From positions 193,662 through 257,661 of the forward strand of contig OZ242222.1 in assembly GCA_965206765.1 (NCBI GenBank): DNA of 64,000 nt, given 5' to 3'. The DNA comes from Candidatus Multivorans sp. (GTDB taxonomy: Bacteria > Acidobacteriota > Thermoanaerobaculia > Multivoradales > Multivoraceae). The translations under genes and the position numbers were made by a program. Below, in pieces: positions 341 to 50,070 of this stretch. The notes under the pieces are model-generated. The model did not search any database. It saw only the letters and a program-made list of their open reading frames with translations, and was not told the origin of the DNA. Each line of letters opens with the position of its first letter. The first letter of the stretch is position 1.

Positions 341-356
341 TCAGTCGGCCGACTGA
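341..356. repeat. Perfect 16-bp palindrome TCAGTCGGCCGACTGA containing the stop codons of both convergent reading frames.
   Basis: Read directly: tcagtcgg/ccgactga are exact reverse complements. The minus-strand gene stops at 341-343 and the plus-strand remnant ORF stops at 354-356. Confidence 0.7.
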
Positions 357-17265: not shown

Positions 17266-17404
17266 GGCGGCCAGCCGGGCTACGATTGGCCGCCATGCAT
17301 CCCCGTTGCTCAGCTTCGCGTGGCCGCCAACGATCCCCTGTGTCGCACCGGCGAGGCCGTCGTACTTGATAGATCATCGCCCTCCGAGCGGTAGCGTTGG
17401 CCCA

Positions 17405-20400: not shown

Positions 20401-20722
20401 TTCCGAGGCCCGGCTAAAGCCCTGGAACCGCCGCCGCAGCCGCAATCTGGGCCAGCCGGCGGCGGACGGCGCGCCGCCGCCCCTGATCGACTGCGTCCAT
20501 CGGCTGATGCAACTCTGGAAGACCGGCGAGCAGACGCGCGTGGATCGCTACCTGGCCGACCGCGGGCTATGGCGCCACGAACTGTTCGCCCGCGTCGTTC
20601 AGGCGGTCATCGAACTCGCCGGCGAGGGCGCCGAAGAGCGGTCCATCCTGGAGTCGATCCAGAACCACCTGCAGGGCCGCGGCGCCGCCGCGCCCGCTCC
20701 GCGGCAGCGGAGCATGTTGTAG
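17405..20722 (+). CDS. DUF1156 (COG1743) N6-adenine DNA methyltransferase with Zn-ribbon, about 1100 aa. This is the methylase component of the DUF499/DUF1156/helicase module.
   Basis: N-terminus RLIEAAFPL...EKNVRHGHISTLHIWPARRPLAACRA is typical of DUF1156. Motif I: LDPFAGGGAIPLEA. Motif IV: DPPY in FDVICTDPPYYDAIPYSD. Zn-ribbon: CANC...CPCC. Probable GTG start at 17405 (the tool ORF starts at TTG 17306). Confidence 0.85.
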   Translation: MNPDTRLIEAAFPLRQTSLDSVHEKNVRHGHISTLHIWPARRPLAACRAALLATLLPDPGDAEGRRRLMARIAGEVRQRQTPAGKLKDETAGGVLHWGRESSPELEKLRHEVREAFGGRAPRVLDPFAGGGAIPLEAMRLGCDVTASDLNPVAWFVLRCTLHYPRLLAGQELPLPDFAVRDRSFVEAFLKAQGVTKKVALRERLRELGHSDGEPVQLRSALLDRAVDSTRIGERTAAARDSDPSLGTRAFRPHPARDGAGPALPADFPWHLRAWGRRVLAEARRELARRYPTYAEFEPVRRKGRGRRNAEVSFPERRFRPRSPELLEPDDEGNVSVAAVNAEFDSVHLENEANPRWVAKPTVAYLWARTVRCANCRAELPLLKTRWLCKKPGKRILLQVTPRKDGSGVDFALEHGVPEGEGNAARRREHDRRLGAATMSRSGAKCPCCSAIATMADLRNEGRAGRLGERMTAVVVGGQQGKEYRLPTEAEIAVAAVGEEELRCLYAELPFGLPEEPTPSEKALGMRVPRYGFDTWRKLFTNRQLLALGMFVRSIRSAPAGMNDYPEEWREALSVCLAPSISRLTDRCSTLATWTNDHDKIRSTFARFALPMVWDFAESCPLADTTGGFVQAAEWVARVCEHLQRAAKDAPLPEVAQKSATRSWGSGAFDVICTDPPYYDAIPYSDLMDFFFVWLRRTLYGVSAAGDDAFAGPLGPKWNAAASSGQGDGELIDDASRFGGDRRASKQNYEDGMARAFGRFHDALRDDGRLVIVFANKQPDAWETLVSALIRAGFVVCGSWPIHTERLNRQRSLASAALSSSIWLVCRRRPAAARPGWDGGVLAEMRSNITDRLRQFWDAGIRGPDFVWAATGPALEAFSRHPVVKKADAQGELLSVAEFLRQVRRMVVGFAVSRLLANGSDESRAAVELDDLTTYYLLHRHDYGLDAAPAGACILYAVSCNLSDAELAGGLDLLARGGASTTAVSDEDGDEDGPETAGSASEARLKPWNRRRSRNLGQPAADGAPPPLIDCVHRLMQLWKTGEQTRVDRYLADRGLWRHELFARVVQAVIELAGEGAEERSILESIQNHLQGRGAAAPAPRQRSML

Positions 20723-22340: not shown

Positions 22341-23615
22341 ATGATCCGCCGAATCCAGGCGCTCAACTACCGCTGCCTGCGGTCGATCGACATTGAGCTC
22401 GACCGATTTCATGTCCTCGTTGGGCCGAACGGCTCCGGTAAGAGCACGCTGCTCGACGTCGTCGGCTTCCTGGGCGACATGGTGTCCGAGGGCCTGCAGG
22501 CAGCCGTCGACGCACGGACCAGGAACTTCCAGGATCTGGTTTGGGGGCGGCCCAGGAACGGACTCGGCTTCGAACTGGCGGTGGAGTTCGATCTGCCCCA
22601 GGACGTGAAGAGCAAGCTTCCCAAGGAGAAAGGATTCGAGCTGTTTCGCTACGAAATCAAGATCAAGGAGGACGACCGGACCGGGGTACGAATCGAGTCA
22701 GAGAGAGGGCTTCTCCTTTCCCGCGTGGAGGAGGCGGCTCCTCTGCAAGGCGTCCTCCGGTTCCCCGACCCGCCGGAGGCCCCTGCAACGATTCTTCTTG
22801 GTGGCCGGCGACGCGGAGCCAGAACCATACTCAGCAAGTCCAGTGCAGGACGAGACAATTTCAACATCGAAGTGTCTGAAGAGTCGGGCAAGGGATGGGC
22901 AATAAGCATCTCGTTCGGCCCAGGACGATCGACCCTGCGAAACCTGCCGGAGTCCCCAGAGAAGTTCCCCGCTTCGACCTACGTCAAGCGTCTGCTTGAG
23001 ACGGGAACCCACAGACTGTTCCTCGATAGTGAACGAATGCGTCAGTCCAGTCCTCCTGGACGCCAGATCGAAGCCATTTCGTACGACGGCTCCAACCTCC
23101 CCCGCGTCATTAGGAGGCTTCGGGAAGAGTGCGGAGAGAAGTTCGAACAATGGCTGAGCCATGTTCGCGCGTCCCTGCCAGCGGTTCGGGACATTCGCGT
23201 TGAAGAGCGCGATGAGGACCGGCACTGTTATCTCGTGATTTGCTACGAGACGGGAGTAGAGGTTCCCTCATGGATGGTCTCGGACGGGACCCTGCGCCTG
23301 CTGGCTTTGACCTTGCCTGCGTATCTGGTTGACGTAAACAAGATCTACGTGATCGAGGAACCCGAGGACGGATTGCATCCAGGGGTCATGCAGGATGTGT
23401 ACGACGCGCTTTCTTCCGTCTACGACTCCCAGGTGCTGCTGGCGACCCACTCCCCGATCTTCCTGAGCCACGCGGATCTCGAACACGTGCTCTGTTTCGG
23501 CATGGACCCACGTGGTGCGACGCACGTTATTCCTGCAACATGGCATCCCCGGCTCAAGGATTGGCAGGGAGATCCGGACCTGAGTGTCTACTTCGCGGCG
23601 GGAGTCCTGGGATGA
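22341..23615 (+). CDS. AAA_21/AAA_15-family ATPase (OLD/abortive-infection-type ABC ATPase without a nuclease domain).
   Basis: Walker A: LVGPNGSGKSTLLD. Walker B region: VIEEPEDGLHP. C-terminal LLATHSP motif. Confidence 0.8.
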   Translation: MIRRIQALNYRCLRSIDIELDRFHVLVGPNGSGKSTLLDVVGFLGDMVSEGLQAAVDARTRNFQDLVWGRPRNGLGFELAVEFDLPQDVKSKLPKEKGFELFRYEIKIKEDDRTGVRIESERGLLLSRVEEAAPLQGVLRFPDPPEAPATILLGGRRRGARTILSKSSAGRDNFNIEVSEESGKGWAISISFGPGRSTLRNLPESPEKFPASTYVKRLLETGTHRLFLDSERMRQSSPPGRQIEAISYDGSNLPRVIRRLREECGEKFEQWLSHVRASLPAVRDIRVEERDEDRHCYLVICYETGVEVPSWMVSDGTLRLLALTLPAYLVDVNKIYVIEEPEDGLHPGVMQDVYDALSSVYDSQVLLATHSPIFLSHADLEHVLCFGMDPRGATHVIPATWHPRLKDWQGDPDLSVYFAAGVLG

Positions 23616-24253
23616 GAGCCAGCGAGGAACCCCGCAGCCTGATCGTTCTGGCTGCGGACAAGCACATCAAGGCGTCCTTGGAGACGCTGCTTGAGCGGCG
23701 CCGGACGGACTTGGCTATTTGTGACATCACGTTCGAAGCGTATCGTCATCCACAGTCGGATCCGGGCTGCAGGACGAAAGCGGCTGAGTTTCTGCGCTCA
23801 TTCATCAGGCAGTACCGCTACGCACTCGTGGTCTTCGATTGGAACGGATGTGGCAGCACGAGCGCGGCAGAGAGCATTCAAGCCGCGGTCGAGCAGGACC
23901 TTGGCCGCAACGGCTGGATGGAGCGGTCGAAGGTGGTCGTGATCTCCCCGGAAGTTGAGGCTTGGGTGTGGAGTTCTTCCGACCACGTCGCACAGGTTCT
24001 TGGATGGGCCGGAGGGCTAGGCCGTCTTCGTTCGTGGCTCGAGGACAGAGGGCTCTGGTCGGCAGGCGACTTGAAGCCGGCTGATCCCAAGAAGGCTATG
24101 GCCCAAGCACTACGCCATCGGCGCCGAGTGCGATCGTCCGTGCTGTTCAGTGACTTGGCGGCTTCCGTCGAGTTCGACCGTTGCGAGGACCGTGCTTTCA
24201 AGGAGCTCATCGGGACGCTACGAACCTGGTTTCCGCGAAGCAAGGCGGCGTGA
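23612..24253 (+). CDS. DUF4276/RloB-like small partner of the AAA_21 ATPase. ATGA overlap with the ATPase stop and GTGA overlap with the DUF499 start.
   Basis: About 213 aa, immediately coupled to the ATPase. C-terminal EVEAWVW resembles the conserved E-x-E-A-W motif of DUF4276 partners. This assignment is by context and weak motif only. Confidence 0.45.
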   Translation: MRASEEPRSLIVLAADKHIKASLETLLERRRTDLAICDITFEAYRHPQSDPGCRTKAAEFLRSFIRQYRYALVVFDWNGCGSTSAAESIQAAVEQDLGRNGWMERSKVVVISPEVEAWVWSSSDHVAQVLGWAGGLGRLRSWLEDRGLWSAGDLKPADPKKAMAQALRHRRRVRSSVLFSDLAASVEFDRCEDRAFKELIGTLRTWFPRSKAA

Positions 24254-27200
24254 CCAGGCCACGTCCCAAACCCTGGCACGAAGTCGTCCGGCTCAAGGAC
24301 GAGCTGCGCTCGGGCGAACTGTCGCTGGCGGAGTTCGCAGCCGATCTGCATGAGGTCACGCTCAGACGGGGCAAGCGGCCGGTGTACGAGGAGCCGGAGA
24401 AGTTCTTCGCGCTGACCTATCCCACGCACGCGTTGCGGGAGCTCGTTCGTGATGTGGCGGCGCGGCTCGCGGGGCGAAGCGACAAGGCGGTGCGGCAGTT
24501 GGAGTTGACGTACGGCGGCGGCAAGACGCATACGTTGATCGCGCTCTATCACTTGTTCCGGGACCCGGATGGTCTGCCGGACGTGCCGGCGGTGAGTGAG
24601 TTTCGCCAACACGCGGGTCACCAGTTGCCGGGGGCGCACACGGCGGCGCTGTGCTTCGACAAGATCGACGTTGAACGCGGCATTGAGGGTGTGCGTTCTC
24701 CAGGTGGCGAGACCCGGACCCTGCGGCATCCGTGGAGCGTGCTCGCGTATCAACTCGGCGGCGATGACGGCCTGCGGGCGATCCACGGCGCGGGTAGTGC
24801 CGAGGAGCGTGAGACGCCCCCGGCCGAGCCCTTGCTGGTGAAGTTGCTGGAGCGCCCGCAAGAGCGCGGCCTCGGAACGCTCATCCTGGTAGACGAGGTC
24901 CTGATGTACGCGCGGGAGAAGGCCGGCCAGGACCGCGTGTGGCGGGATCGCATCATCGACTTCTTCCAGTACCTCGTGCAGGCGACAACGAAGGTCGACC
25001 GCGCGGCGCTGGTCGCATCCCTGCTCGCGACCGATCCCGCCAAGCAACAGGGCGCCGAGGGCCAGCGGCTGATCGAGGATCTGTTCGACGTGTTCCGCCG
25101 GCAGCGGGAGGAGGGCGTGCAGCCGGTCGGAAGGAAGGACGTGGCGGAAGTGCTGCGCCGGCGGTTCTTCGAGCCGGCGGCGTTGCGGGACACCGAGTCG
25201 TGGCGGTCGCAGGCGATCGGGGCGGTGCGAGAGCTGGCCGGTCTCGACGAGACGACAGCCAAGAACAGGAAGACGGAAGAGGACCGTTTCGAGGACAGCT
25301 TTCCATTTCATCCCGATCTGACCGACGTGTTCTACAGCCGGTGGACGCAGCTTCCGGGCTTTCAACGCACCCGCGGCATTCTGCGTATTCTGGCGACCGC
25401 GTTGCGTGAGGCAGAGTCCTGGGATGGGAGTCCCCTGGTGGGCCCTTCGGCGCTGCTGACGGCCCAAGGGACGGAGGGCATCTCGGAAGCCGTGCGCGAA
25501 CTGGCCGGCGTAGCGAGTTCGGAGGTCGGCGAGGGCGCGAGAACCGACTGGGTCACGCTGCTGGAGGCCGAGTTGGACAAGGCGCGGCAGATCCAGGCGG
25601 AGCTGCCGGCCCTGGCGGCCAGCCGCGAGTTGGAGCAGGCTGTGCTGGCGGTCTTCCTCTACTCTCAGCCGATCGGCCGGAAGGCCTCGACGCCGGAGTT
25701 GCTACGGATGGTCGGCGCCGGCGGTCCCGACAAGATCATGCTCCGCAAGGGGCTAGCCCGCTGGCGTGAACTGTCCTGGTTCCTGGACGACGAGGACGTC
25801 GGCGCCGATGTTCACGGCGTAGAGGGGGGCCTGCCCAAGTCCTGGCGGCTTGGCAATCGTCCCAATCTGCGCCAGATGCACGACGAGGCTTGCAAGGAGC
25901 GCGTGTCGACGCAGGCTGTCGAGGCCCGTCTCGAGGAGGCAGTTCGTCAAGCCAGAGTGCTCACGGACGGCGCCCGCGCTGCCGGCGCCGCCGTCCACAT
26001 GTTGCCGGCGTCCCCAAAGGATGTCGGCGACGATGGCGCCTTCCGCTACGTCGTGCTGGGACCGGATGCCGCCTCGGAATCCGGCAAGCCCAGCGCGCTG
26101 GCGAAGCGATATCTGGCCGAGACCACCAGCCCGGACCGCCCGCGTGTTCATCGCAATGCGGTAGTTCTGGGTGTGCCGTCGCGCGATGGCCTGGCGGCGG
26201 CCCGCGGCGGCATCCGCGCGTTGCTCGGCTGGGAGGACGTGAAAGGCCAGCTCACGGGGCAGACGGTCGATGCGATGCAGGCCGAGCGGCTCGGGCGGCA
26301 GCTTCGAGATGCGCGCGCGCGGGTTCCCGACGCCGTGCGGCAGGCGTACTGCGTGGTTGTTGCCGCGGGCACGGACGGCGACACGCAGGCGTTCAAGCTG
26401 CCGGGCGCCGCCGGGCCGCTGTTCAGCGAAATCAAGGGCGACCAGCGGTCACGGATCCGGGAGACTCCGGTCGACGCGGAAGCCCTCTTGCCGGGCGGAC
26501 CCTACGACTTGTGGCGTGAGGGTGAGCAGGCGCGATTCGTGAAGGACCTTGCCGGCGCATTCGCCCGCTATTCGCATCTCCCCAAGGTACTGAGGCCGCA
26601 GATCGTTCGTGAGACGGTGCTGCAGGGCGTGGAACGCGGTCTCCTCGTTGCCCAACTGGCGCGGCCGGACGGGAGTTGCCGAACCTGGTGGAGGGAGCCG
26701 GTGGATTCGGAATGCGTAGACGATCTTGCGCTTGAGGTGGTACTTCCGGGCGGCGCCGAGCTGAAACGTCTCGCCCCGTCCCTGCTGGAGCCGGGGAGGT
26801 TGCCAGGCCTGTGGCCGGATGGGGGCCGCGGAGTCGACCTCACAGCTCTGTTGGAGTACTTCGGCGGTGACTTCACGGTGACCGTCTCCCACGAGGGTTA
26901 CGACGACGTGGTCGAGATTCCGGGCTGCTCTCAGGCAGTCGCGGAAGAGGTCGTCTGTCAGGCCGTAGAGCAGGGCTTCGTATGGCTGCGCAACGGGCCG
27001 ACCTCGGTGTGGAAGGAGGAGGTTCCCTACGGCGCCCTCAATGAACGTGCGGTGCTGCTGCGGTCGCCCGATGAATTGACGCCCCAGGAACTGGTCGAGG
27101 AAGCGCTACCCGGGGCGTGGAGCGACGAACAGGCGACCGGCTGGGGCCTGTCGCAGGCGCTGTCGCAAGTCCGGGGGGAGCCGGTGCCGTGGGGGTTGCT

Positions 27201-27540
27201 GCGTGAGGGGATCTCCAACGCGGTGCGTAGTCGCTGGTTGGAGGTCGCCGAGGGCAGTACCTCGGCCAGTTCCGAAGACGCCGCCGCTTTGAAGATTCAA
27301 CGCCCAGCGGATGGCCAGACGCCCGAGCCATCGCCGGGTCCTCGTGTCGCCGACGCGCTGCTTGAGGCGAACGAGATCCAGGATCTTGCTGACAGGCTTC
27401 CCGATCTTCTAGGCGCCAGTGCCGGGTGCGGTTTGAAGTTTCGCGTGAGAGTGGAACTTGGCGAGGATGCACCGGCCGAAGCGCGTGACAAACTGAACGA
27501 GGTGCTCCGGGAGGTGTCGGACGATCTGAAGGCCGGGTAG
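24250..27540 (+). CDS. DUF499 (COG1483, BrxC/PglY-like) large AAA+ ATPase. This is the ATPase component of the DUF499/DUF1156/helicase module.
   Basis: GTG start gives MTRPRPKPWHEVVRLKDELRSGELSLAEFAADLHEV (typical DUF499 N-terminus). Walker A: TYGGGKTHTLIALYHL. Length about 1100 aa. Confidence 0.8.
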   Translation: MTRPRPKPWHEVVRLKDELRSGELSLAEFAADLHEVTLRRGKRPVYEEPEKFFALTYPTHALRELVRDVAARLAGRSDKAVRQLELTYGGGKTHTLIALYHLFRDPDGLPDVPAVSEFRQHAGHQLPGAHTAALCFDKIDVERGIEGVRSPGGETRTLRHPWSVLAYQLGGDDGLRAIHGAGSAEERETPPAEPLLVKLLERPQERGLGTLILVDEVLMYAREKAGQDRVWRDRIIDFFQYLVQATTKVDRAALVASLLATDPAKQQGAEGQRLIEDLFDVFRRQREEGVQPVGRKDVAEVLRRRFFEPAALRDTESWRSQAIGAVRELAGLDETTAKNRKTEEDRFEDSFPFHPDLTDVFYSRWTQLPGFQRTRGILRILATALREAESWDGSPLVGPSALLTAQGTEGISEAVRELAGVASSEVGEGARTDWVTLLEAELDKARQIQAELPALAASRELEQAVLAVFLYSQPIGRKASTPELLRMVGAGGPDKIMLRKGLARWRELSWFLDDEDVGADVHGVEGGLPKSWRLGNRPNLRQMHDEACKERVSTQAVEARLEEAVRQARVLTDGARAAGAAVHMLPASPKDVGDDGAFRYVVLGPDAASESGKPSALAKRYLAETTSPDRPRVHRNAVVLGVPSRDGLAAARGGIRALLGWEDVKGQLTGQTVDAMQAERLGRQLRDARARVPDAVRQAYCVVVAAGTDGDTQAFKLPGAAGPLFSEIKGDQRSRIRETPVDAEALLPGGPYDLWREGEQARFVKDLAGAFARYSHLPKVLRPQIVRETVLQGVERGLLVAQLARPDGSCRTWWREPVDSECVDDLALEVVLPGGAELKRLAPSLLEPGRLPGLWPDGGRGVDLTALLEYFGGDFTVTVSHEGYDDVVEIPGCSQAVAEEVVCQAVEQGFVWLRNGPTSVWKEEVPYGALNERAVLLRSPDELTPQELVEEALPGAWSDEQATGWGLSQALSQVRGEPVPWGLLREGISNAVRSRWLEVAEGSTSASSEDAAALKIQRPADGQTPEPSPGPRVADALLEANEIQDLADRLPDLLGASAGCGLKFRVRVELGEDAPAEARDKLNEVLREVSDDLKAG

Positions 27541-38730: not shown

Positions 38731-38918
38731 CCGCGCGGACTCCGGGTGGCTAGGAGCTTGCGCGGTAGAACGATCTGACCTGGGAACCCGTGTGGCGCGA
38801 CCCGCGCCACACGCGAACCACTCCGTGCGCACGTCATCGGGCGCACGGATGGCACGCGGGCATCCTGCCCGCATCCGGCGCGAAGCGTCGGCCTCCGGTA
38901 GTTCTGCCGCGCAAGCTC

Positions 38919-39308
38919 CTACTCGGGCGAGTCGAACCGGGAGCCGCCCCGGCAGTCCGGGGACAGGCTCCGGCTCTCGCCGCGTGCGCGCCATTCGGCA
39001 GGGGTCCAGGCGTCGATCGCCAGGGCGTGGACCGGACCCGCCAGCTCATCGGCCAGGGCGCCGTGGACAAGGCGGTGCCTGCGGAGCCGGGTTGCGCCCT
39101 CGAACCGGCTGCTGACGACAACGACCCGGAAGTGGGTCTCGGCCTTGGGCGGTACGTTGTGCATCCCGCTCTCGTTGAGAACCTCCAGCACTTCGGCGCC
39201 GGTCGCCGCTTCGAGCTTGGCGCGGATCGTCCGCTCCAGGAGTGTTCCCTGGACAACCGCCTTCCCGGAGGCGCGGTTGGTGGCGAGGGGGCGGGCGATG
39301 CCGGTCAT
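38919..39308 (-). CDS. bolA: BolA-family transcriptional regulator.
   Basis: ESGMHNVP...THFRVVVVSSRFEG...RHRLVHGAL...HALAIDAWTPAEW. Confidence 0.8.
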   Translation of the reverse strand: MTGIARPLATNRASGKAVVQGTLLERTIRAKLEAATGAEVLEVLNESGMHNVPPKAETHFRVVVVSSRFEGATRLRRHRLVHGALADELAGPVHALAIDAWTPAEWRARGESRSLSPDCRGGSRFDSPE

Positions 39309-39360
39309 GGGCGGAGCATAGCGCTGCCGTCCCGCGGGTGCGTGCTACGGTCCTCCGCCG

Positions 39361-40071
39361 ATGGCTACCGACCGCCGTTCGCCTTGGATCTACGTGCTCC
39401 TGGGCTGTCTGGGCCTCCTGGTTCTAGGAGCCCTGGTCGTCGGCGGCCTGGTGTTCTTCGGTGTTCGCACTGCCCGGAACATTGCTGCCGACAACCAGGA
39501 TCCCGAGCGCCGACGCGAACGGGCTCTCGAGATTCTCGGCGCCGACGAAGCGCCGGGCGGGTACTACCCGGCGGGTGTGATCTCGGTTCCCTTCGTGATC
39601 GACATGGCCGTCCTGTCGGACCTGCCTCCGGGCGCGGAACCGTGGGCCGGCGAGTTCGGGGAACGGGGCTTCTACTACGTTCAGGCCCGGTGGGGAGGCG
39701 ATGACCTGAGGGCGTTCTTCGACGGTGAGACGTCGGAGGCGATAGCCCTGCGGGACATGGGGCTGGAGCTCGATCTCGAGGAGAATCTCGAGCGCGGCGA
39801 TCTCGACCGGGAGGATGTCGCCGCGCGATGGGCGACCTTCCGCGGCAGCACGATGTTCGGGCCGGGGGAACAGATCGGGGAAGTCGTGACGTTGATCGAG
39901 TTTGATTGCCCGGGGGACGAGCGGATGCGCATGGGCATCTGGTTCGGCCCTTGGGGGGAGAGCAGGAGTGCGGATTTTGCTAGTGACGACGGCGCGGTCG
40001 ATTCAGTTCCTGGGAGCGAGGCGATTGCCGCGTTTCTCGAGCCGATGCACCCCTGCGGCGCGCCCGGTTGA
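39361..40071 (+). CDS. Hypothetical N-terminally membrane-anchored protein.
   Basis: Single TM helix YVLLGCLGLLVLGALVVGGLVFFGV. The rest is hydrophilic. No family recognised. Confidence 0.45.
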   Translation: MATDRRSPWIYVLLGCLGLLVLGALVVGGLVFFGVRTARNIAADNQDPERRRERALEILGADEAPGGYYPAGVISVPFVIDMAVLSDLPPGAEPWAGEFGERGFYYVQARWGGDDLRAFFDGETSEAIALRDMGLELDLEENLERGDLDREDVAARWATFRGSTMFGPGEQIGEVVTLIEFDCPGDERMRMGIWFGPWGESRSADFASDDGAVDSVPGSEAIAAFLEPMHPCGAPG

Positions 40072-40084
40072 CGGGAACGCTGCG

Positions 40085-41941
40085 ATGCCCCGAAGAACGG
40101 ATCGCCTTCGCCGTCTGGGCGTCTGCCTGGCGGCGGCGGGCGTCTGCTGCTGGTTGGCCGTCCCCGCGGCCGCACAGTCTTCCGGCGGCGGGTCGGCCAG
40201 GTACCGGCTGACGTTCGAAGGCGCCTGGACGCGCACTGTCACGCCGGGCGGAGTGCCGGGCGGCGCGCACTTCTCCCCGCTGATCGGCGCCGTCCACAAC
40301 AACCAGGTGAGCTTCTGGAGGCGCGGCGGCACAGCCAGCCCGGAGCTCGAACAAGTGGCGGAACTCGGAGTCAATACGAGGATGCGAGCGTTGATGAAGA
40401 GCAGCCGCTCGCAGGTGCTGGAGGTGCTCGAGAAGAACCCGGGGAGAGGCGGTACAGCCCGGACGACGATCGAGTTCGAGGCCACCAGAGACTTTCCCCT
40501 GGTCACCCTGGTCACGATGGTCGCGCCCAGCCCGGACTGGTTCGTGAGCGTCCCCGGGCTGTCGTTGCTCGACGGTCAGGGCGAGTGGCTGACCGGCCGC
40601 GAGGTCGACCTGTTTCCCTACGACGCGGGGACCGAAGAAGGAACCGAGTTCTCCCTCGACAATCGGCCAACCGTGCCCCGGGAAACGATCACGAGCATCC
40701 GGGGGATGGGCAAGTTCACCGATGCGCCGATAGCGCGGCTGACGTTCGAACTGCTGGAGTCTGACGACCCCGACGACACGGACGACACGGACGACACGGG
40801 CGACATGGCGCCGCGGTTTGTTGGGGACGTCGCGGCGCAGGCGTCGGGAGATACCGCGGTCGTCGTGTTCTGGCGAGGGGAGTGGGCCGAGCCCGAAAGG
40901 GGGAGACTCGATGTCGAGGCGCGCGGCCAGAAGACGGACTGGACCGTGCTCGTGACCGCCGACGCCAGTGACGCGCAGGTGCGCATCGACGGCCTGGAGA
41001 CCGGGGCGCCGTACACGTTCCGGCTACGCGGCCAGAACGCTGAGGGAGGGTTCGAGTACTCGCAGCAGGTCAGCGCCACAACCGGCGCCTACGATGGCGC
41101 TTGCCGCGCCGGCGAGGGGTTCCTGTGTCTGCGGGAAGATCGCTTCGAGGTTCAGGTTCACTGGAAGAACAATGCTCGGGCCGGCGATTTCGGGATCGGT
41201 AGCAGTGTGCCCGTGGAGGTCTCCGACGAGTCCGGGCTGTTCTGGTTCTTCAGTCCGGCCAACATCGAGCTCGTGGTCAAGGTCCTCGACGGCCGCGCGC
41301 ACAATGGCAATCACTGGGTGTTCTACGGCGCGCTCTCCGATGTCGAGTACTGGATCACGGTGCGGGACGTCGTGGCGGGCGCCAGGCGCACGTACCACAA
41401 CACGCAGGGTCGGATCTGCGGCCAGAACGACACGAAGGCGTTCCCTCAGAGTGCCGTTGCCGCTGTCGGTGCCCCGGCCGGCGAAAGCGGTTTGCCGGGT
41501 TCTGCCGGTGTGGACCTGCTTCGGATCGAGGCACTCCCGTTCGAAGCGGTCGGGGTCGCGCTGCCAGTTCATGGCAGCGGCCACTGCGAACCCGGCCCGC
41601 AGCGTCTGTGCGTCCTGGACAACCGTTTCTCGCTCGAAGTCCGGTTCATCGACCCCAACGAGTCGAATCCGGGCGTCGATCCGGAGAAGGCGGCGACGGT
41701 GCTGCCCTCGCTGACCACCGCGGAGACGGGCTTCTTCTGGTTCTTCAACGCGTCGAACATCGAGTTGGCGGCGAAGGTGCTCGACGGCCGGGCGAGCAAC
41801 GGCCGCTTCTGGCTGCTCTACGGAGGTGTCTCGGATGTCGAGTACACGCTCACGGTCACGGACACCGTCACCGGCGCTTTCAAGAGCTACCGCAACGAAC
41901 AGGGGAGCATCTGCGGAGAGGTCGACACGGACGCCTTCTAG
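40085..41941 (+). CDS. Secreted Spondin_N-domain protein with a fibronectin-III-like domain and two tandem copies of an uncharacterised Cys-bracketed domain of about 110 aa.
   Basis: Signal peptide MPRRTDRLRRLGVCLAAAGVCCWLAVPAAAQ. Spondin_N-like region RYRLTFEGAWT...HFSPLIGAVHN. Acidic (DDTDDTDDTGD) linker. Then two repeats sharing LC-x-RF-V-W...SGLFWFF...N-E...KVLDG...NG..W..YG..SDVEY...V.DTVTG..K.Y.N.QG.ICG..DT.AF. Confidence 0.7.
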   Translation: MPRRTDRLRRLGVCLAAAGVCCWLAVPAAAQSSGGGSARYRLTFEGAWTRTVTPGGVPGGAHFSPLIGAVHNNQVSFWRRGGTASPELEQVAELGVNTRMRALMKSSRSQVLEVLEKNPGRGGTARTTIEFEATRDFPLVTLVTMVAPSPDWFVSVPGLSLLDGQGEWLTGREVDLFPYDAGTEEGTEFSLDNRPTVPRETITSIRGMGKFTDAPIARLTFELLESDDPDDTDDTDDTGDMAPRFVGDVAAQASGDTAVVVFWRGEWAEPERGRLDVEARGQKTDWTVLVTADASDAQVRIDGLETGAPYTFRLRGQNAEGGFEYSQQVSATTGAYDGACRAGEGFLCLREDRFEVQVHWKNNARAGDFGIGSSVPVEVSDESGLFWFFSPANIELVVKVLDGRAHNGNHWVFYGALSDVEYWITVRDVVAGARRTYHNTQGRICGQNDTKAFPQSAVAAVGAPAGESGLPGSAGVDLLRIEALPFEAVGVALPVHGSGHCEPGPQRLCVLDNRFSLEVRFIDPNESNPGVDPEKAATVLPSLTTAETGFFWFFNASNIELAAKVLDGRASNGRFWLLYGGVSDVEYTLTVTDTVTGAFKSYRNEQGSICGEVDTDAF

Positions 41942-43131
41942 CGGCCGTCCGCGATCCGCTGCAGGTCCCTGCTGCGGTCAACAAACGACTCGAGGAGGGC
42001 GAACTGCACCCGGCAGCGATCCAGGTTCTGCCCCGGTCGCTCGACGCGGAAGTAGACGTCGCCCTGGAGATGGTCGGTCAGGAAGCGGACCGCCTGTTCG
42101 AGCGTCAGCACCAGGGCGCCGTCGACCAGGCTCTGGCGCTCTCCCGCGGTCAGGAAGCGGGCGCCGTCGAGGTAGCCGGAGACAAGGGCGCTGAACAGTT
42201 CCAGGTCGACCTCGATTCCCTCTGGATCGCGGGCATCCTCGTCGGCCCGGTGGGCCATTGACCGGGCCATGTCGCCGAAATCGAAAGCGGCGAGACCGGG
42301 CATCGCGGTATCCAGGTCGACGACGCACAGCGCTTCGCCCCTTGGCCGGTCGAAGAGGATGTTGCTGATCTTGCAGTCGTTGTGGACGATGCGCTGGGGC
42401 ACGCCTCGGGCCGCGGCTTCGATCAACCGGCTGGCCAGACCCCGATGCGCGGCGGCGGCCTGGATTTCGGCCTGCGCCTGCCTGCGGCGGGCCGCGGCGC
42501 CGGCGCCGGCGGGCTCGCCACCCAGCACACGGGCCAGAGCGTCGAAGCGGCTCACCGTGTCGTGGAAGCGGGGAATCGTCTCGAACAGGGGCGGCGGGGG
42601 CAGGTCGGCGAGCATGCCCTGAAAGCGACCGAACGCCTGTGCGGCCCGAAAGACCTGATCGGTGGACGACGCGGTGACCTCGGTCGCCACGTCCTCGATC
42701 AGTTCGTACATTCGCCACCAGCCCCCGGCGCCGCTTCCGCGTTGGGCTTCCTCGCCCTGTGCGCCGTCGCGGTCATCGCGCTGCTGGCGCTGCGGGTCGT
42801 TGATCTCGACCCATGTGCGCCCGCTGTCGGCTGGAATCAGGGTCAGCCGGCGTCGTCGGCTTTGCGGGCCGAGCTTCTCGGCGAGATGACGGGTGATCCG
42901 CTCCACGTTGTCCATCAGCCGCCGTGGCTCGGTGAAGACGTGTTCGTTGATCCGTTGCAGCAGTCCTCGCCGCCCGCCGCGGCTCGAGATGACGTAGGAG
43001 TCGTTGATGTGGCCGCTCCGCAGCTCGTGGGCGGCGGTCGGTTCGCCGCCGAGTCGGAAGCGTGCGGCGATCTCGAGGACGGCCTCCGGTTCAAGGGTCG
43101 GTCGGTTCTTCATCAAGGAGTCATCATCCAT
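41938..43131 (-). CDS. APH/NahK-like phosphotransferase (kinase) family protein.
   Basis: Brenner motif IVHNDCKISNILFD and DLD metal-binding motif. About 400 aa. Confidence 0.6.
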   Translation of the reverse strand: MDDDSLMKNRPTLEPEAVLEIAARFRLGGEPTAAHELRSGHINDSYVISSRGGRRGLLQRINEHVFTEPRRLMDNVERITRHLAEKLGPQSRRRRLTLIPADSGRTWVEINDPQRQQRDDRDGAQGEEAQRGSGAGGWWRMYELIEDVATEVTASSTDQVFRAAQAFGRFQGMLADLPPPPLFETIPRFHDTVSRFDALARVLGGEPAGAGAAARRRQAQAEIQAAAAHRGLASRLIEAAARGVPQRIVHNDCKISNILFDRPRGEALCVVDLDTAMPGLAAFDFGDMARSMAHRADEDARDPEGIEVDLELFSALVSGYLDGARFLTAGERQSLVDGALVLTLEQAVRFLTDHLQGDVYFRVERPGQNLDRCRVQFALLESFVDRSRDLQRIADGR

Positions 43132-43444
43132 GGACAACAAGATGCTAGAGCACGGGGAGGGAGAGAACCCGCGTTCGCACCAGGCCCTTCGGGAGAAGGG
43201 GGAAGAACTGCCGGTACTTCTGAGGTTGGTGAAGATGGACGCACTGCCCCTGTGCGAGAGCGGGGTGAAACACAAGAGGGTGGCTGATCGTCTTCATACT
43301 GGTACACTTGCGCGCCGTCGGCTGTCCAACGATCCGGAACCCGCTGAGGTGCTCCTCCAGCGGGTGGGGTGATCTGTAGGCAGAGGCCCGCCAAGAGAAG
43401 ACACGCCCTACCGCGGCCAAATAGAAACCTCCGGAGAACGAAGC

Positions 43445-45169
<1,725 letters not shown>

Positions 45170-45197
45170 AGCCGACCGGCTCGACAGCAGCTCGACA

Positions 45198-45896
45198 GTG
45201 CGGGTACGCACCGGTACCAGCGGGTTCTCCTACCCGGCGTGGGCGGGGCCGTTCTATCCGGCCGGAACGAAGCGGCCGGACATGCTCGGCTTCTATGCCA
45301 CCAGGCTCGGTGCGGTGGAGATCAACAACACGTTCTACCGGATGCCGAAGGCGGACCTGCTCGAGCGCTGGCGCGGCGCGGTGCCCGGGAGTTTCCGCTT
45401 CGCGCTGAAGGCGTCCCGCCGCATCACGCACCACCAGAGGCTGAAGGACGCCGGCGATTCGGTGGACCATCTCTTCCGTACCGCCGAGGTCCTCGGCGAG
45501 CACCTTGGCCCCTTCCTCTTCCAGTTGCCGCCCTACCTCAAGCGGGACGTCGATCGGCTGGCGAGCTTTCTCGAGATCCTGCCCGACGGTTTGCGAGGGG
45601 CCTTCGAGTTCCGCCATGCCAGTTGGTTCGACGACGAGGTGTTCGCGCTGCTGGAGAGCGCCGGCGCGTCGCTGTGCATCGCGGACAGCGGGAGTGACCA
45701 CGACACGCCCCTGGTGGCAACCGCCGACTTCGGCTATCTGAGGCTCCGCCGCGAGGACTACGACGAAGCCGCGCTCCGTTCCTGGGCCGAGAAGATCCGG
45801 GAGCAACCCTGGAGCGAGGTCTACGTCTTCTTCAAGCACGAAGACGAGGGCGCCGGGCCGCGCATGGCCGGCGAGTTCGAAGCCCTGTTCGGCTGA
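45198..45896 (+). CDS. DUF72 (UPF0759) family protein.
   Basis: GTSGFSYPAW...FYRMP...FALKASR pattern. GTG start. Confidence 0.8.
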   Translation: MRVRTGTSGFSYPAWAGPFYPAGTKRPDMLGFYATRLGAVEINNTFYRMPKADLLERWRGAVPGSFRFALKASRRITHHQRLKDAGDSVDHLFRTAEVLGEHLGPFLFQLPPYLKRDVDRLASFLEILPDGLRGAFEFRHASWFDDEVFALLESAGASLCIADSGSDHDTPLVATADFGYLRLRREDYDEAALRSWAEKIREQPWSEVYVFFKHEDEGAGPRMAGEFEALFG

Positions 45897-45905
45897 CGTG
45901 TCGCG

Positions 45906-47321
45906 ATGACGATCGATATCTCCTATCGCCGCATTCTCGCGCTCACGGCGCCCGTGGTCGTTACTCAGGTGACCCATACCGCGATGGGTGTGATCGACAC
46001 GATGATGGTTGGGCGGCTGGGAGTTGTGGCGCTTGCGGGCGTCGGTCTCGGGGCGATCATCTCCTGGTGGTGCCTGAGCTTCTTTGTCGGGCTGCTCCAG
46101 GGCGTGAACACCTTCGTGGCACAGTTCTTCGGCGCTGGCCGGCGGGATCGGGTTGGCCTTGCCTTCTGGCAGGGTCTGTATCTTGCGCTGGGCGCCGGGC
46201 TGGCGTTGCTGGCGTTGTCGCCGCTCTCGACCTGGGTGTTCAGTCTGACCAAGGCCTCGCCGGAAGCGCAGGCGATTGCCGCCGAGTACACGGAAGTCCG
46301 GATGGCCGCCGCAATCGGGCTGATGATCTTCCTGGTGGCTGAGAACTACTACCGCGGGCTCGGCCGCACCGACATCCCGATGTGGGCGGGCATGATCCAG
46401 TTGGGGCTGAACTGCGGGCTCAACTATCTCTTCATCTTCGGCGCCCACGGGTTCCCGGAACTGGGTCCCGCCGGCGCCGCCGTGGGCACCGTGATCGCGC
46501 AGTTTGTCGTAGCGGTCGCACTCCTGGGCGGCGTGTTGCTGACCCGCCTGGGCAGGGACTACGAGGCCTCGACCCCCAGGCCCCCGGAGTCCGCTCTGAT
46601 GGGGAGGATGCTCCGCGTCAGTGTGCCGATCGGTATCCAGGTGTTCATGGAGCTCGGCGGAATCAGCGTCTTCACGGCCCTCGTCGCCCGCCTGGGCGAC
46701 GCGGAGATGGCCGCGACCAACGCGGTCATTCAGGCGTGGTCGGTCTCCTACATGATTGCGGTTGCGCTCGCGGCAGGCGCCACGACGCTGGTCGGCCAGT
46801 GTCTCGGCGCGCAGCAGCTTCGCGACGCTCGCCTGGTGGTGGGGAAAGTGCTCCGCATCGGCTACGTGGCAATGGCGGCGACGGCGGTCGTCTATGTCGG
46901 CTTTCCCGACCGCCTGATGTCCCTGTTCGTGCCGGAATCCGAACTTGCGCTGGTGATGCCCTATGCCCAGCCGCTGTTCGTGATCGCGGTGGTCTGCCTG
47001 GTCTTCGACCTGCAGTTCAACGTGCTCGCGGGGGCGCTGCGCGGCGCGGGAGACACCACCTACAGCATGCTGGTGAACGTCGGCGTGGCCTGGCTGGTGT
47101 TCGTTCCCCTGCTCTTTGTCGCGACCCGTTCGTGGGGCCTGATCGGCGCCTGGAGCTGCTTCATCATCCACGTCATGCTGATGGCTGCCCTGCTGGCGCT
47201 GCGGGTGCGGGGCCGCACCTGGATCGAGCGCGGCGCCGCGCTGCTCGACGCCGAGCGCGTCGCGGGCGCCGGAGAATCTGCGGTCGAGATCGACGACCTG
47301 CGCTCCTCGCCGGCGCTCTAA
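45906..47321 (+). CDS. MATE-family efflux transporter.
   Basis: 12-TM profile with MATE-like repeats. Length about 470 aa. Confidence 0.8.
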   Translation: MTIDISYRRILALTAPVVVTQVTHTAMGVIDTMMVGRLGVVALAGVGLGAIISWWCLSFFVGLLQGVNTFVAQFFGAGRRDRVGLAFWQGLYLALGAGLALLALSPLSTWVFSLTKASPEAQAIAAEYTEVRMAAAIGLMIFLVAENYYRGLGRTDIPMWAGMIQLGLNCGLNYLFIFGAHGFPELGPAGAAVGTVIAQFVVAVALLGGVLLTRLGRDYEASTPRPPESALMGRMLRVSVPIGIQVFMELGGISVFTALVARLGDAEMAATNAVIQAWSVSYMIAVALAAGATTLVGQCLGAQQLRDARLVVGKVLRIGYVAMAATAVVYVGFPDRLMSLFVPESELALVMPYAQPLFVIAVVCLVFDLQFNVLAGALRGAGDTTYSMLVNVGVAWLVFVPLLFVATRSWGLIGAWSCFIIHVMLMAALLALRVRGRTWIERGAALLDAERVAGAGESAVEIDDLRSSPAL

Positions 47322-47418
47322 GCCGGATATTTCACCGAGGGCCGCAGTAGGTTATCGGTGAAATATCCGGGCTAGCCGGCGGACGTCATCGCAAGCGATT
47401 CACTCGCGCGATCGGTTC

Positions 47419-50070
47419 CTACCGCCGGCACCCCTGGGGGAATGCCGTGCTGTCGGCGATCGCGGCCGCGGCTGTGCCCGGTTCGTTCCGGTACTCCTTG
47501 GTCGTTCCCGTCACCGTGTCCGAAACCCGGATCACGTAACCCAGGTCCGTCGTCGACGCGGCGTAGACCCACACGTGGCCGTTGGCCAAGCAACCGTCCA
47601 GCACCTTGACCAGGACCTCCCAGTTGTCCTCGTTGAAGAACCGGAACAGCCCCGAGTCGTTGGTTCCTTCATGTACGACGCTGCCGCTGCCGCTTGTGCC
47701 GTCGGCCTTCCACCAGTTCACGACGACGGCGTAACGCGAGTCATGCAGGCATAGGGTCACAGGGTCCGCGGCGCAGGCGCCGGAGGGCTCGGCGGCCTGG
47801 ACCAGGAACACCCGCGACGCGGTGGACACGACGTTGCCGTCCGTGACGGTCAACGTGACGGTGTAGAAGCCGGGCGATGACCAGCTATGCGGCACGTTCT
47901 GCCCTCTGGACAGCCGGCCGTCTCCGAACTCCCAGAGGCGCTGGGTAACCGTTCCGGAGCTCGCGTCCGCGAACGCGATCTCCTCGCCGGTGTGGACCTG
48001 GCACGGTTCCTCCGCGCATTCGACGCCGACGGTGAAGGCGGCCTCGGGCGGCACCCGCGGTGGCGGCGGTGGTTCGGGATCAGGTGGCGGATCGGGATCC
48101 GGCGGTGGATCGGGATCAGGCGGTGGTGGCGGCGGCGGAGGGCTGGTCCGGGGTGTGCCGGTTGCCGAGTTGGACCACACGCTGCCTCCGACCACATTGA
48201 CGGCGCGCACCTGGACCTCGATCTGCTCCCCGTTCGTCAGACTGGTGACCGTGTGCTCGCCGTCGGTTCCGGAATCCACGACCGACCAACTCGCGCTCCC
48301 TGCTGTTGTGCGGTGGCGGAGCTTGTAGTCGGAGATTGAGGAGCCGTTGTTGGCTGGTGCGGTCCACTGAATCTCCAGGCGGCCGTTGCCCGCCTGGACC
48401 GTGGGAGTTGAGGGCACGGACGGGGGCGCCATTCCGACGAACAGGAAGACGGCGCTGACCGCGCCCCAGTTGTCGTCCGAGTCCTTCGCGCGCACGAAGA
48501 CGGTATGACGCCCCGCGCTCAGGCCGGTCGTGTTGATGGTCGCGGTCGCACCCTCCGAACTGCTGTCGAACGCCCCGTCAGAGGCCGACAGGGCGCTTGC
48601 AGTCGCTCCCGTCGCCCAGGGCGGCGCGTCGACGTAGTACTCGCCCGCCGCGATGCTCTGCGTCGGTTCGGCGCCGTTGCTGTTCTCGTAGCGGGTGTCG
48701 TCCAGGGTCGCGGACAGGGTGACCGAGGTTCCGGCGGCGACGCCGGTCGTCGATGCGCCGGCGCTCAAACTCAGGTTGCGAGCGTCGGGTCCGGCCGGAG
48801 TGATGTAGGGCGCCCGCGCCACCTTGAAGGCGTAGAGGAGCGACGCGATGTTGCCGTCCAGGATCGACTCCTCGAAGTAGCTGCAACCCTGGAAGAACGT
48901 CGTGCCGATCTCGTACGTGTAGGAGGCGCGCCCGAGGACGCCGTAGCCGTAGTCGTCGGTCGTGCCGCTGGTCGGATACAGCCCGTAGGTCCGTTGCGGC
49001 GTGTAATCATTGAAGAACGCGAGCTTGCGGCCGAGGGTCTGGAGGGCCGTGCCGTTGGGCGCCGCTTCGTCTATGTGGCCCCATGACCAGAGCATGAGTC
49101 GGCCGTGGCTGTGGATGTCGAGGTAGACGCCGCCGGTGTCGGAGGGCGCCGCGTCGTCGTCGTTCGGCCCGCGGGCGTCCGGGAACAGGTTCGCCATGTA
49201 GGTCTGAATCGCCTGCGTCTCAGGCTCCGACGCGGCAGACAGGCCCTGGTAGTTGTTGCGGCATTCAGTCGTGCTGGAGCCGGAGACGCCCCATTTGAAG
49301 TCGAAGTTACGATTCAGATCGACGCCCGGCACAGAGTCCGGACAGTGGGTCGTGTTGTGATTCTTGCGCCAGAGCACACCCGCCTCGGCGCGTTTCCTCC
49401 CGTCCGGATTCGCGTGCAGCATGATGTGGACCTCCTGGTGGTCCAGGAGCCACCGTGCGTCCGCGTCCGTCTCGTAGGCGTCGGCGAGCTGTTCCGCGAA
49501 GCGCAGGCCGAGTTCGGCGGTCGCGTACTCGCGCGGGTGGACTGCCGTGGTGATGAACAGGGCGGGTTTGGTCCCCGAGGTCGCCGAATTCGTGAGGCGC
49601 AGCACCATGAGGTCGTAGCCTTCCGCTGCGTTCTGCTCCTTCTTCCAGGACTTGCCGGCCATGCTCCAGGTGGCGAGCGTCGGATGCTGGCTGACGATCG
49701 TTCCGGCGCTCGCGTACGTCTCCTCGACCGTGCGGTAGCACGGGAAGTCCTTGATGGTTGCCTGTACGACCGCGGTGGGGAGTTCGGAGGGGAGGGCCAC
49801 GAGAACGTAGTCGTCGTCCTCGACGACGCGCATTCCGGCCTGCCGGGCCGCCTCAACGTCTGCGTCCGTGGCCAGCAGGACGATGTAGCCCTTCTCGTAC
49901 TCCGACTCCAGCGCCTCGAGCGAGATCACGGCCCTGGCGGCGACCAGCGGATCGTCGAAGTAGGCGCGCACGACCCGGGTGCCGGCGGGCAGGTCGGGCT
50001 GCTGGGCCCAGGCGGTGCTGGCGGCCGCCAGCACCGCCGACAGGGCGAAGACCTTGGCGCGGCGCCGCAT
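47419..50070 (-). CDS. Secreted M14 zinc carboxypeptidase with fibronectin-III/PKD-like domains, a Pro/Asp-rich linker and a C-terminal copy of the same Cys-bracketed domain found in the spondin-like protein.
   Basis: Signal peptide MRRRAKVFALSAVLAAASTAWAQ. M14 motifs HPREYAT and HSHGRLMLWSWGH. Linker: PPPPPPPDPDPPPDPDPPPDPEPPPPP. C-terminal domain: CAADPVTLCL...SGLFRFFNEDNWEVLVKVLDG...YRNEPG. Confidence 0.8.
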   Translation of the reverse strand: MRRRAKVFALSAVLAAASTAWAQQPDLPAGTRVVRAYFDDPLVAARAVISLEALESEYEKGYIVLLATDADVEAARQAGMRVVEDDDYVLVALPSELPTAVVQATIKDFPCYRTVEETYASAGTIVSQHPTLATWSMAGKSWKKEQNAAEGYDLMVLRLTNSATSGTKPALFITTAVHPREYATAELGLRFAEQLADAYETDADARWLLDHQEVHIMLHANPDGRKRAEAGVLWRKNHNTTHCPDSVPGVDLNRNFDFKWGVSGSSTTECRNNYQGLSAASEPETQAIQTYMANLFPDARGPNDDDAAPSDTGGVYLDIHSHGRLMLWSWGHIDEAAPNGTALQTLGRKLAFFNDYTPQRTYGLYPTSGTTDDYGYGVLGRASYTYEIGTTFFQGCSYFEESILDGNIASLLYAFKVARAPYITPAGPDARNLSLSAGASTTGVAAGTSVTLSATLDDTRYENSNGAEPTQSIAAGEYYVDAPPWATGATASALSASDGAFDSSSEGATATINTTGLSAGRHTVFVRAKDSDDNWGAVSAVFLFVGMAPPSVPSTPTVQAGNGRLEIQWTAPANNGSSISDYKLRHRTTAGSASWSVVDSGTDGEHTVTSLTNGEQIEVQVRAVNVVGGSVWSNSATGTPRTSPPPPPPPPDPDPPPDPDPPPDPEPPPPPRVPPEAAFTVGVECAEEPCQVHTGEEIAFADASSGTVTQRLWEFGDGRLSRGQNVPHSWSSPGFYTVTLTVTDGNVVSTASRVFLVQAAEPSGACAADPVTLCLHDSRYAVVVNWWKADGTSGSGSVVHEGTNDSGLFRFFNEDNWEVLVKVLDGCLANGHVWVYAASTTDLGYVIRVSDTVTGTTKEYRNEPGTAAAAIADSTAFPQGCRR
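48060..48145 (-). repeat. Low-complexity tandem repeat encoding the Pro/Asp-rich linker.
   Basis: Plus strand reads repeated ggtggcggatcgggatc-type units. Confidence 0.6.

Follow-up and report, generated by a model that had tools for sequence, protein, structure and literature searches.

We identified a large family of extracellular protein domains, found mainly, almost exclusively, in Acidobacteriota, that is undescribed in the domain libraries and the literature that we searched. The domain usually occurs as a tandem pair and is fused promiscuously to Sec-exported proteins whose other domains are mutually unrelated, making it a nonhomologous addition to the accessory modules already known from the ends of secreted proteins. 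We tentatively favor, at a little under even odds, the reading that the pair is a common putative binding or anchoring unit that keeps diverse exoproteins on a polymer of the envelope, the matrix, or a host.

Three copies of the domain lie in two genes of the window, by which we mean the whole 64,000-nucleotide stretch of Candidatus Multivorans sp. DNA that was analyzed. The first gene (nucleotides 40085 to 41941, plus strand; open reading frame list and translation) encodes protein A, which has 618 amino acids followed by a stop codon and consists of a signal peptide, a Spondin_N domain, an fn3 domain, and then domain copies A1 and A2, ending in ...GEVDTDAF-stop. Pfam places Spond_N at amino acids 38 to 206 (E = 3e-39) and fn3 at amino acids 248 to 331 (E = 1e-4), and the NCBIfam spondin domain NF038123 was also found (E = 3.5e-29). 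Read by eye from the sequence, the Sec-type signal peptide comprises amino acids 1 to 30 (nucleotides 40085 to 40174, plus strand), MPRRTDRLRRLGVCLAAAGVCCWLAVPAAA, with cleavage probably after AAA and ahead of QS. In an hmmsearch with a family profile built from 51 members, copy A1 spanned amino acids 332 to 453 (nucleotides 41078 to 41443, plus strand; i-E = 4.8e-51), with cysteines at 340, 348, and 445, and copy A2 spanned amino acids 494 to 618 (nucleotides 41564 to 41938, plus strand; i-E = 1.8e-47), with cysteines at 501, 509, and 610. The final Phe of A2 is the final residue of the protein. The two copies are joined by a linker of approximately 40 amino acids (nucleotides 41444 to 41563, plus strand) that is rich in Ala, Gly, and Pro and mostly of low confidence in the structural model described below.

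The second gene (nucleotides 47419 to 50070, minus strand; open reading frame list and translation) encodes protein B, with 883 amino acids followed by a stop codon. It consists of a signal peptide, an M14 carboxypeptidase domain (Peptidase_M14, amino acids 124 to 391, E = 1.3e-48), an fn3 domain (amino acids 553 to 638, E = 1.9e-8), a Pro-rich linker, a PKD domain (amino acids 686 to 752, E = 4.7e-11), all placed by Pfam where an E value is given, and a single domain copy, B1. Its Sec-type signal peptide, again read by eye, comprises amino acids 1 to 22 (nucleotides 50005 to 50070, minus strand), MRRRAKVFALSAVLAAASTAWA, and would be cleaved between AWA and QQ. The Pro/Asp-rich linker between fn3 and PKD (nucleotides 48043 to 48141, minus strand) reads PPPPPPPPDPDPPPDPDPPPDPEPPPPP. 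Copy B1 spans amino acids 758 to 883 (nucleotides 47422 to 47799, minus strand; hmmsearch i-E = 8.4e-50) and has cysteines at 766, 774, 827, and 881; the profile match itself covers nucleotides 47440 to 47799, and a six-residue tail with the last cysteine, in a C terminus that reads ...AFPQGCRR, extends the copy to nucleotide 47422.

In pairwise BLASTP comparisons, A1 and A2 were 45% identical (E = 1e-37), A1 and B1 were 41% identical (E = 2e-24), and A2 and B1 were 36% identical (E = 1e-22), a resemblance that far exceeds chance. The original prediction, of one domain present twice in a Spondin_N/fn3 protein and once in an M14 carboxypeptidase, is therefore borne out. It had given a size of about 110 amino acids, which we correct to a unit of approximately 115 to 120. 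No fourth copy was found when a three-copy HMM was compared with the six-frame translation of the window, where the next best match had an E value of 6.6. The window is syntenic with contig OZ253534.1, also from Candidatus Multivorans sp., at 91 to 97% nucleotide identity over 12 kb.

The domain does not belong to a named family in the libraries that we searched. Neither Pfam-A (2025 copy) nor NCBIfam (June 2026) gave a match at an E value of ≤1 over the domain in proteins A and B, the outcome of the very comparison (Pfam/TIGRFAM) that had been set in advance as the refutation test for its novelty. The fn3 and PKD matches lie upstream of the domain and do not cover it. When 51 diverse members were scanned singly against both libraries, no family matched more than 4 of the 51, and none did so with an E value better than 1e-3; we rejected identity with a named family, given that these matches were scattered and inconsistent and had E values above 1e-3. 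Precomputed Pfam annotations, made with newer model versions, gave an empty entry ("-") for the domain-only matches listed and otherwise showed nothing but PKD and further partner domains. When PDB sequences were searched with a profile, the best E value was 0.34, and a search of the full-text literature found no description of the domain. Models of known terminal modules were equally silent. The type IX secretion system C-terminal domain (T9SS CTD) models TIGR04183, TIGR04131, and PF18962 had no match at an E value of ≤1 in proteins A and B or in the 51 members, and neither PF04151 (PPC) nor any Pfam carbohydrate-binding module (CBM) family matched the domain in these proteins. The C termini of proteins A and B lack an LPXTG motif, a match to TIGR02595 (PEP-CTERM), and a hydrophobic helix. 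The first reading, which did not recognize the domain as a T9SS CTD, PEP-CTERM, or LPXTG domain, holds for all three. A PEP-CTERM tail following the pair was considered for the 38 family proteins with a tail and rejected; only one of them (P0240) has a helix and RKRR, which lie beyond the domain.

The HMM search that had been suggested revealed a very large family. Among 1.84 billion cluster representatives (50% identity), a profile search returned 10,563 representatives at an E value of ≤1e-3 and 5,698 at ≤1e-30, and the named sources of these were nearly all Acidobacteriota metagenome-assembled genomes (MAGs) of Thermoanaerobaculia and Holophagales. A scan of GTDB genomes, one per species, with the three-copy alignment as the query confirmed 464 loci, of which 80 were kept for analysis, several genomes supplying more than one. 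Nearly all of the 80 came from Candidatus Multivorans, Thermoanaerobaculia, Holophagales, Vicinamibacteraceae, or unclassified Acidobacteria MAGs; the sole exceptions were a handful of MAGs labeled Gemmatimonadetes, Deltaproteobacteria, and Syntrophomonadaceae. Some isolate labels resemble sponge- or coral-derived bins, and one carrier came from a forest-soil assembly.

The family is marked by the pattern C-x7-C...R(F/Y)...G-x-FWFF...N-x-E-x3-K-x-LDG...N-G-x2-W...Y...D-T-x-T-G...Y-x-N...D-T-x-A-F. The LC-x3-RF spacing in the repeat pattern first proposed needs correction, the actual spacings being C-x7-C and LC-x4-R(F/Y). Two cysteines, the C9-C17 pair, are family-wide (98 to 100% and 97% of copies), and a third, at profile position 110 in an "ICG" motif, occurs in only about one-third of copies. 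The description of the domain as bracketed by cysteines thus fits the copies in the window but not the family, in which both conserved cysteines are at the N-terminal end. At 22 positions, conservation is ≥94% in both copies of the pair, and ≥97% in all but two cases. These positions include the polar residues R22, N58, E60, K64, D67, D93, N104, and D114, and the aromatic residues FWFF, W76, Y87, and Y102 are also conserved. Such conservation is more constraint than a spacer requires. Copies 1 and 2 share a common consensus, and identity was 0.54 between copies in the same position versus 0.52 otherwise; we therefore rejected a functional differentiation of the two copies, which are essentially equivalent by these measures.

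The prevailing architecture is the tandem pair. Exactly two copies were present in 146 of the 150 best representatives (four copies in 3 of the 150) and in 76 of the 87 carrier open reading frames at the 80 genome loci, with a median linker of 36 amino acids between copies. The three copies in the window were originally described as separate units; their number is correct, but the domain seems to work as a tandem pair. B1 represents a subtype that is linked to PKD and present as a single copy; an additional DGC...GC cysteine pair takes the place of Cys110, and this subtype is common among Holophagales and Thermoanaerobaculia matches carrying PF00801 or PF18911. The C-terminal position first noted for the domain is a majority habit rather than a rule. 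The pair ends within 10 residues of the C terminus in 126 of the 150 best representatives (84%), and 143 of 211 C-terminal carriers stop exactly on the last Phe of the domain, yet the pair lies elsewhere in 24 of the 150 (approximately 16%), in most cases directly behind the signal peptide and ahead of a further 400 to 700 residues. Within the window, A2 and B1 are C-terminal and A1 is internal. Some proteins, such as P0297, P0298, P0372, and P0328, consist of a signal peptide and the pair without other domains; one of them, P0298, has 309 amino acids and comes from a 324-kb contig.

The proteins to which the pair is attached are secreted and highly varied. By a simple heuristic, a Sec-type leader was present in 100 of 126 representatives with an initial Met, few of these leaders being lipoprotein- or Tat-like. 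Peptidase partners include M14, M23, M12B, M6, trypsin-like, subtilase, and MXAN_6640-type HExxH peptidases, and other enzymatic partners include a GH39-like glycosidase, GDSL and class-2 lipases, a Vgb-lyase-type propeller, and PGA_cap. Nonenzymatic partners include Spond_N, BNR/sortilin, Laminin_G_3, VWA, plastocyanin-like, He_PIG, PKD, fn3, BACON, CARDB, and PPC domains. The largest partner class among 240 partner regions comprises ELWxxDGT repeat proteins of approximately 1,170 amino acids (67 regions), followed by a largely unannotated class of approximately 1,200 amino acids (65 regions).

This range of partners bears on the proposal that the domain is a sorting, anchoring, or carbohydrate-binding module. 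Anchoring or binding is still the best reading, but a CAZy-type module that targets a substrate by bringing a catalytic domain onto its polysaccharide is very unlikely, because peptidases, lipases, a glycosidase, and nonenzymatic proteins alike are partners. An all-beta module with conserved aromatic residues would suit such a role. Of approximately 30 partner regions that were scanned, however, only 1 was a glycoside hydrolase, most partners being peptidases, lipases, propellers, VWA domains, and repeat proteins, and the domain resembles no Pfam CBM family in sequence and none clearly in fold.

The structure prediction that had also been suggested gave a confident model. AlphaFold2, run on copy A2 with a 51-sequence alignment, produced a model with a pLDDT of 96 and a pTM of 0.88 that contains nine beta strands and one short helix. 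By this model, the domain is a predicted extracellular beta-sandwich of approximately 115 amino acids, and the prediction shows it as a module that would fold independently. A Foldseek comparison of the domain model with the PDB had a best E value of 0.32 and TM-scores of approximately 0.32 or less, and the fold therefore has no convincing solved neighbor. We also modeled the two copies together (amino acids 331 to 618 of protein A), using an alignment assembled from search matches. This model had a pTM of 0.79, and 25 residues, mainly in the linker, had a pLDDT of <50; those in the A1-A2 linker were residues 132 to 134 and 136 to 152 of the model. Because freely tumbling domains would be expected to fall below this pTM, the value suggests that the copies pack against each other in a defined manner.

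The distribution of the third cysteine points in the same direction. Among 216 two-copy proteins, it was present in both copies in 71, in neither in 145, and in one only in none; after clustering at 70% identity, the corresponding counts were 27, 77, and 0 of 104 clusters. Presence in both copies or in neither fits a disulfide-stapled pseudo-dimer. The mature form of protein A contains six cysteines in total, all of them inside A1 and A2, and the most economical pairing would be 340 with 348, 501 with 509, and 445 with 610. In seven syntenic spondin orthologues without copy 2, Gly or Ser replaces the third cysteine, and two single-copy proteins, at loci L061 and L062, keep it. On a neighbor-joining tree of the 104 clusters, the both-or-neither state changed at least twice, with one further coupled loss, so that few independent events, approximately two state changes, lie behind the co-occurrence. 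From the pTM of the two-copy model and the co-occurrence of the cysteines, we infer that the copies pack as an intramolecular pseudo-dimer and that, in the sub-clade that includes protein A, a disulfide between Cys445 and Cys610 would staple the pair.

The evidence for pairing (the pTM of 0.79, the cysteine co-occurrence, and the disappearance of the cysteine together with copy 2) would also fit a structural or oligomerization module that has no external ligand and instead (pseudo)dimerizes, stabilizes, or protects the attached protein, as a folding aid or PPC-like accessory. Single-copy versions such as B1 would then dimerize their enzyme, and the PKD-linked subtype is indeed a single copy with its own predicted internal extra disulfide. 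We regard this explanation as doubtful. Proteins made of a signal peptide and the pair offer nothing to stabilize, and a simple dimer interface would not usually call for invariant polar residues along the whole sequence. PPC (PF04151) is moreover annotated separately in pair carriers (P0280, P0294, P0301, and others), and the accessory role may therefore already be filled.

We favor instead, still tentatively, the binding or anchoring reading. Partners that are unrelated and both enzymatic and nonenzymatic, occurrence at either end of a protein or alone, and 22 conserved positions indicate that the domain has a function of its own, concerned with localization rather than with the choice of substrate, and such a function is the reason for preferring binding or anchoring. 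In the proposed mechanism, the usual form would be a tandem pair with a linker of approximately 36 residues and the copies packed against each other, stapled in the sub-clade with protein A by the Cys445-Cys610 disulfide. The pair would act as a noncatalytic binding unit that tethers varied secreted enzymes and adhesin-like proteins to a single common target, in the manner of SLH, LysM, or CBM-type modules. The target would most likely be a polymer belonging to the envelope or matrix of the producer itself or, for the probably host-associated Multivorans-like bacteria, to a host matrix; host association of the carriers is suggested by isolate labels. Counting against anchoring is the extreme C-terminal placement in 84% of the best representatives and the frequent stop on the last Phe, which also fit an export or attachment signal.

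With such a signal, the domain would serve as the cargo tag of a pathway dedicated to export or surface attachment, read by an Acidobacteriota-specific outer-membrane translocon or attachment enzyme. Its likeness would be to the T9SS CTD of Bacteroidota, and the tag might later be removed. Besides the C-terminal placement, restriction to one phylum and very high conservation fit a single conserved machine, and the Sec-type leaders (100 of 126 by the heuristic) imply a further step that takes the proteins across the outer membrane. The T9SS carries a similar mix of hydrolases and adhesins to that found here, where peptidases, a glycosidase, lipases, and adhesin-like repeat proteins bear the domain. 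Nonetheless, we consider an export tag unlikely. The 24 of 150 representatives with the pair elsewhere, mostly right behind the signal peptide, and the proteins composed solely of a signal peptide and the pair, which would be tags without cargo, weigh against a C-terminal sorting signal; a tandem duplicate is likewise unexpected for a tag. No conserved neighboring machinery appeared in the window or at L081, one annotated locus, whose neighbors are housekeeping genes only. All-against-all clustering of open reading frames from the 80 loci, in a survey of shared neighbor genes, was swamped by high-GC shadow open reading frames and yielded no credible partner, which leaves this survey uninformative. 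No T9SS CTD was among the structural matches listed for the domain model, which does not have the seven-stranded Ig-like fold of CTDs. We rate as quite unlikely the stronger claim that the tandem domain is the handle of an undiscovered Acidobacteriota-specific outer-membrane export or attachment pathway, a counterpart of the T9SS CTD that would define an extracellular cargo list for this phylum, sponge and coral symbionts included.

Comparison with known systems places the domain beside several terminal modules without making it a member of any. Like the T9SS CTD (Por_Secre_tail, TIGR04183/PF18962), it is a (predicted) beta-sandwich of roughly 100 residues that sits C-terminally on proteins exported by Sec, is confined to a single phylum (Bacteroidota for the CTD and Acidobacteriota here), and occurs on a broad mix of hydrolases and adhesins. 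It differs in having no sequence match to the CTD and no CTD among the fold matches listed, in normally being tandem, in occurring also at the N terminus or as the sole domain rather than strictly at the C terminus, and in having Acidobacteriota as its carriers. SLH, LysM, and CBM modules are noncatalytic, as the domain is predicted to be, and share with it placement at either protein end, multiple copies, unrelated secreted enzymes as partners, and occurrence nearly alone; the domain has no homology to them, a different predicted fold, and no close PDB neighbor. PPC is likewise a small beta domain at the C terminus of secreted peptidases, for which roles in secretion, stabilization, or substrate binding have been proposed, yet its HMM does not match the domain, and in pair carriers it is an additional domain. 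Dockerins of the cellulosome are internally duplicated terminal modules that gather diverse enzymes onto one target, as the pair may do. Unlike the 115-residue all-beta domain, they are calcium-binding helical modules of approximately 70 residues that bind cohesins; no cohesin-like partner for the domain was identified.

An HMM for this family would be a worthwhile addition to Pfam or NCBIfam, since many carriers now bear just the label "hypothetical protein" or are named after the other domains that they contain. The confident model, to which the PDB offers no close neighbor, also recommends the domain for structure determination. Acidobacteriota rank with the most abundant bacteria of soil, sediment, and sponge- and coral-associated communities; few have been cultured, and little is known about the ways in which their many hydrolases are displayed or released. 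A single module that marks thousands of otherwise unrelated secreted proteins (over 10,000 clusters at 50% identity) is a searchable handle on the extracellular proteome of this phylum. As an export tag, the module would indicate an unknown secretion route; as an anchor, it would tell, through its ligand, what the cell surface or matrix presents.

The gene for the spondin protein that carries two copies of the new domain (protein A, window 40085-41941, plus strand) lies in a neighborhood whose synteny extends over genomes of Candidatus Multivorans and Thermoanaerobaculia, as seen when window 38900-46600 is compared with the new-domain loci L057 (OZ253534.1), L002, L010, L016, L022, and others. 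Its syntenic neighbors are genes for an APH-family kinase (41938-43275) and an rpoD-like sigma factor (43445-45169), together with a DUF72-like ORF and a MATE-type transporter-like ORF. Immediately upstream of protein A is a 236-amino-acid ORF (39361-40071, plus strand) with a hydrophobic helix at its N-terminus; no Pfam family matches it.

Orthologues of the spondin protein do not all carry the tandem pair. In one clade, the orthologue has a single new-domain copy and ends in ...RDLEAF. A spondin-type protein encoded at locus L061 (5650-6360) is likewise single-copy; its domain retains the "ICG" cysteine, the third cysteine found in about a third of copies, and resembles a fusion of the front of copy 1 with the back of copy 2. 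The hybrid domain could be the product of a deletion through recombination between the two repeats, or it could reflect assembly collapse.

Two other features were observed elsewhere in the window. The first is a defense island with an Hma-type system at 6664-27540. Its HmaA-like gene (6664-10476; E = 1.5e-157) encodes an SNF2/DEAD helicase that has an HTH and ends in NOV_C, its HmaB-like gene (17306-20722; E = 9e-112) encodes a DUF1156 adenine methylase, and its HmaC-like gene (24181-27540; E = 9.5e-75) encodes an AAA+ ATPase. Inserted among these genes are two candidate defense genes, one PDC-S20-like (12245-13480) and the other encoding a HEC-01A/mad3-like ATPase (22341-23615). The second is a eukaryote-like repeat protein of 961 amino acids (341-3226, minus strand) that contains, besides two Calx-beta domains, numerous leucine-rich repeats (LRR_4; E = 7.6e-59). 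Eukaryote-like repeat proteins of this kind are frequently reported from sponge symbionts.

Beyond the window, one of the two largest classes of tandem-pair carriers consists of ELWxxDGT repeat proteins of about 1,170 amino acids (cluster representatives P0258 and P0126 and some 65 relatives), which match TIGR04534 with E values of 1e-148 or better; no mention of these proteins was found in the literature searched. Several proteins composed only of a signal peptide and the pair (representatives P0297, P0298, and P0372, likewise outside the window) share a short extra tail, PPGTCP, which places one additional cysteine behind the second copy. In some genomes, two or three genes that each have a tandem pair at their end directly adjoin one another (L040, 3871-12174; also loci L031, L078, and L080), and this arrangement suggests that the carrier genes have undergone local paralogue expansion in those genomes.
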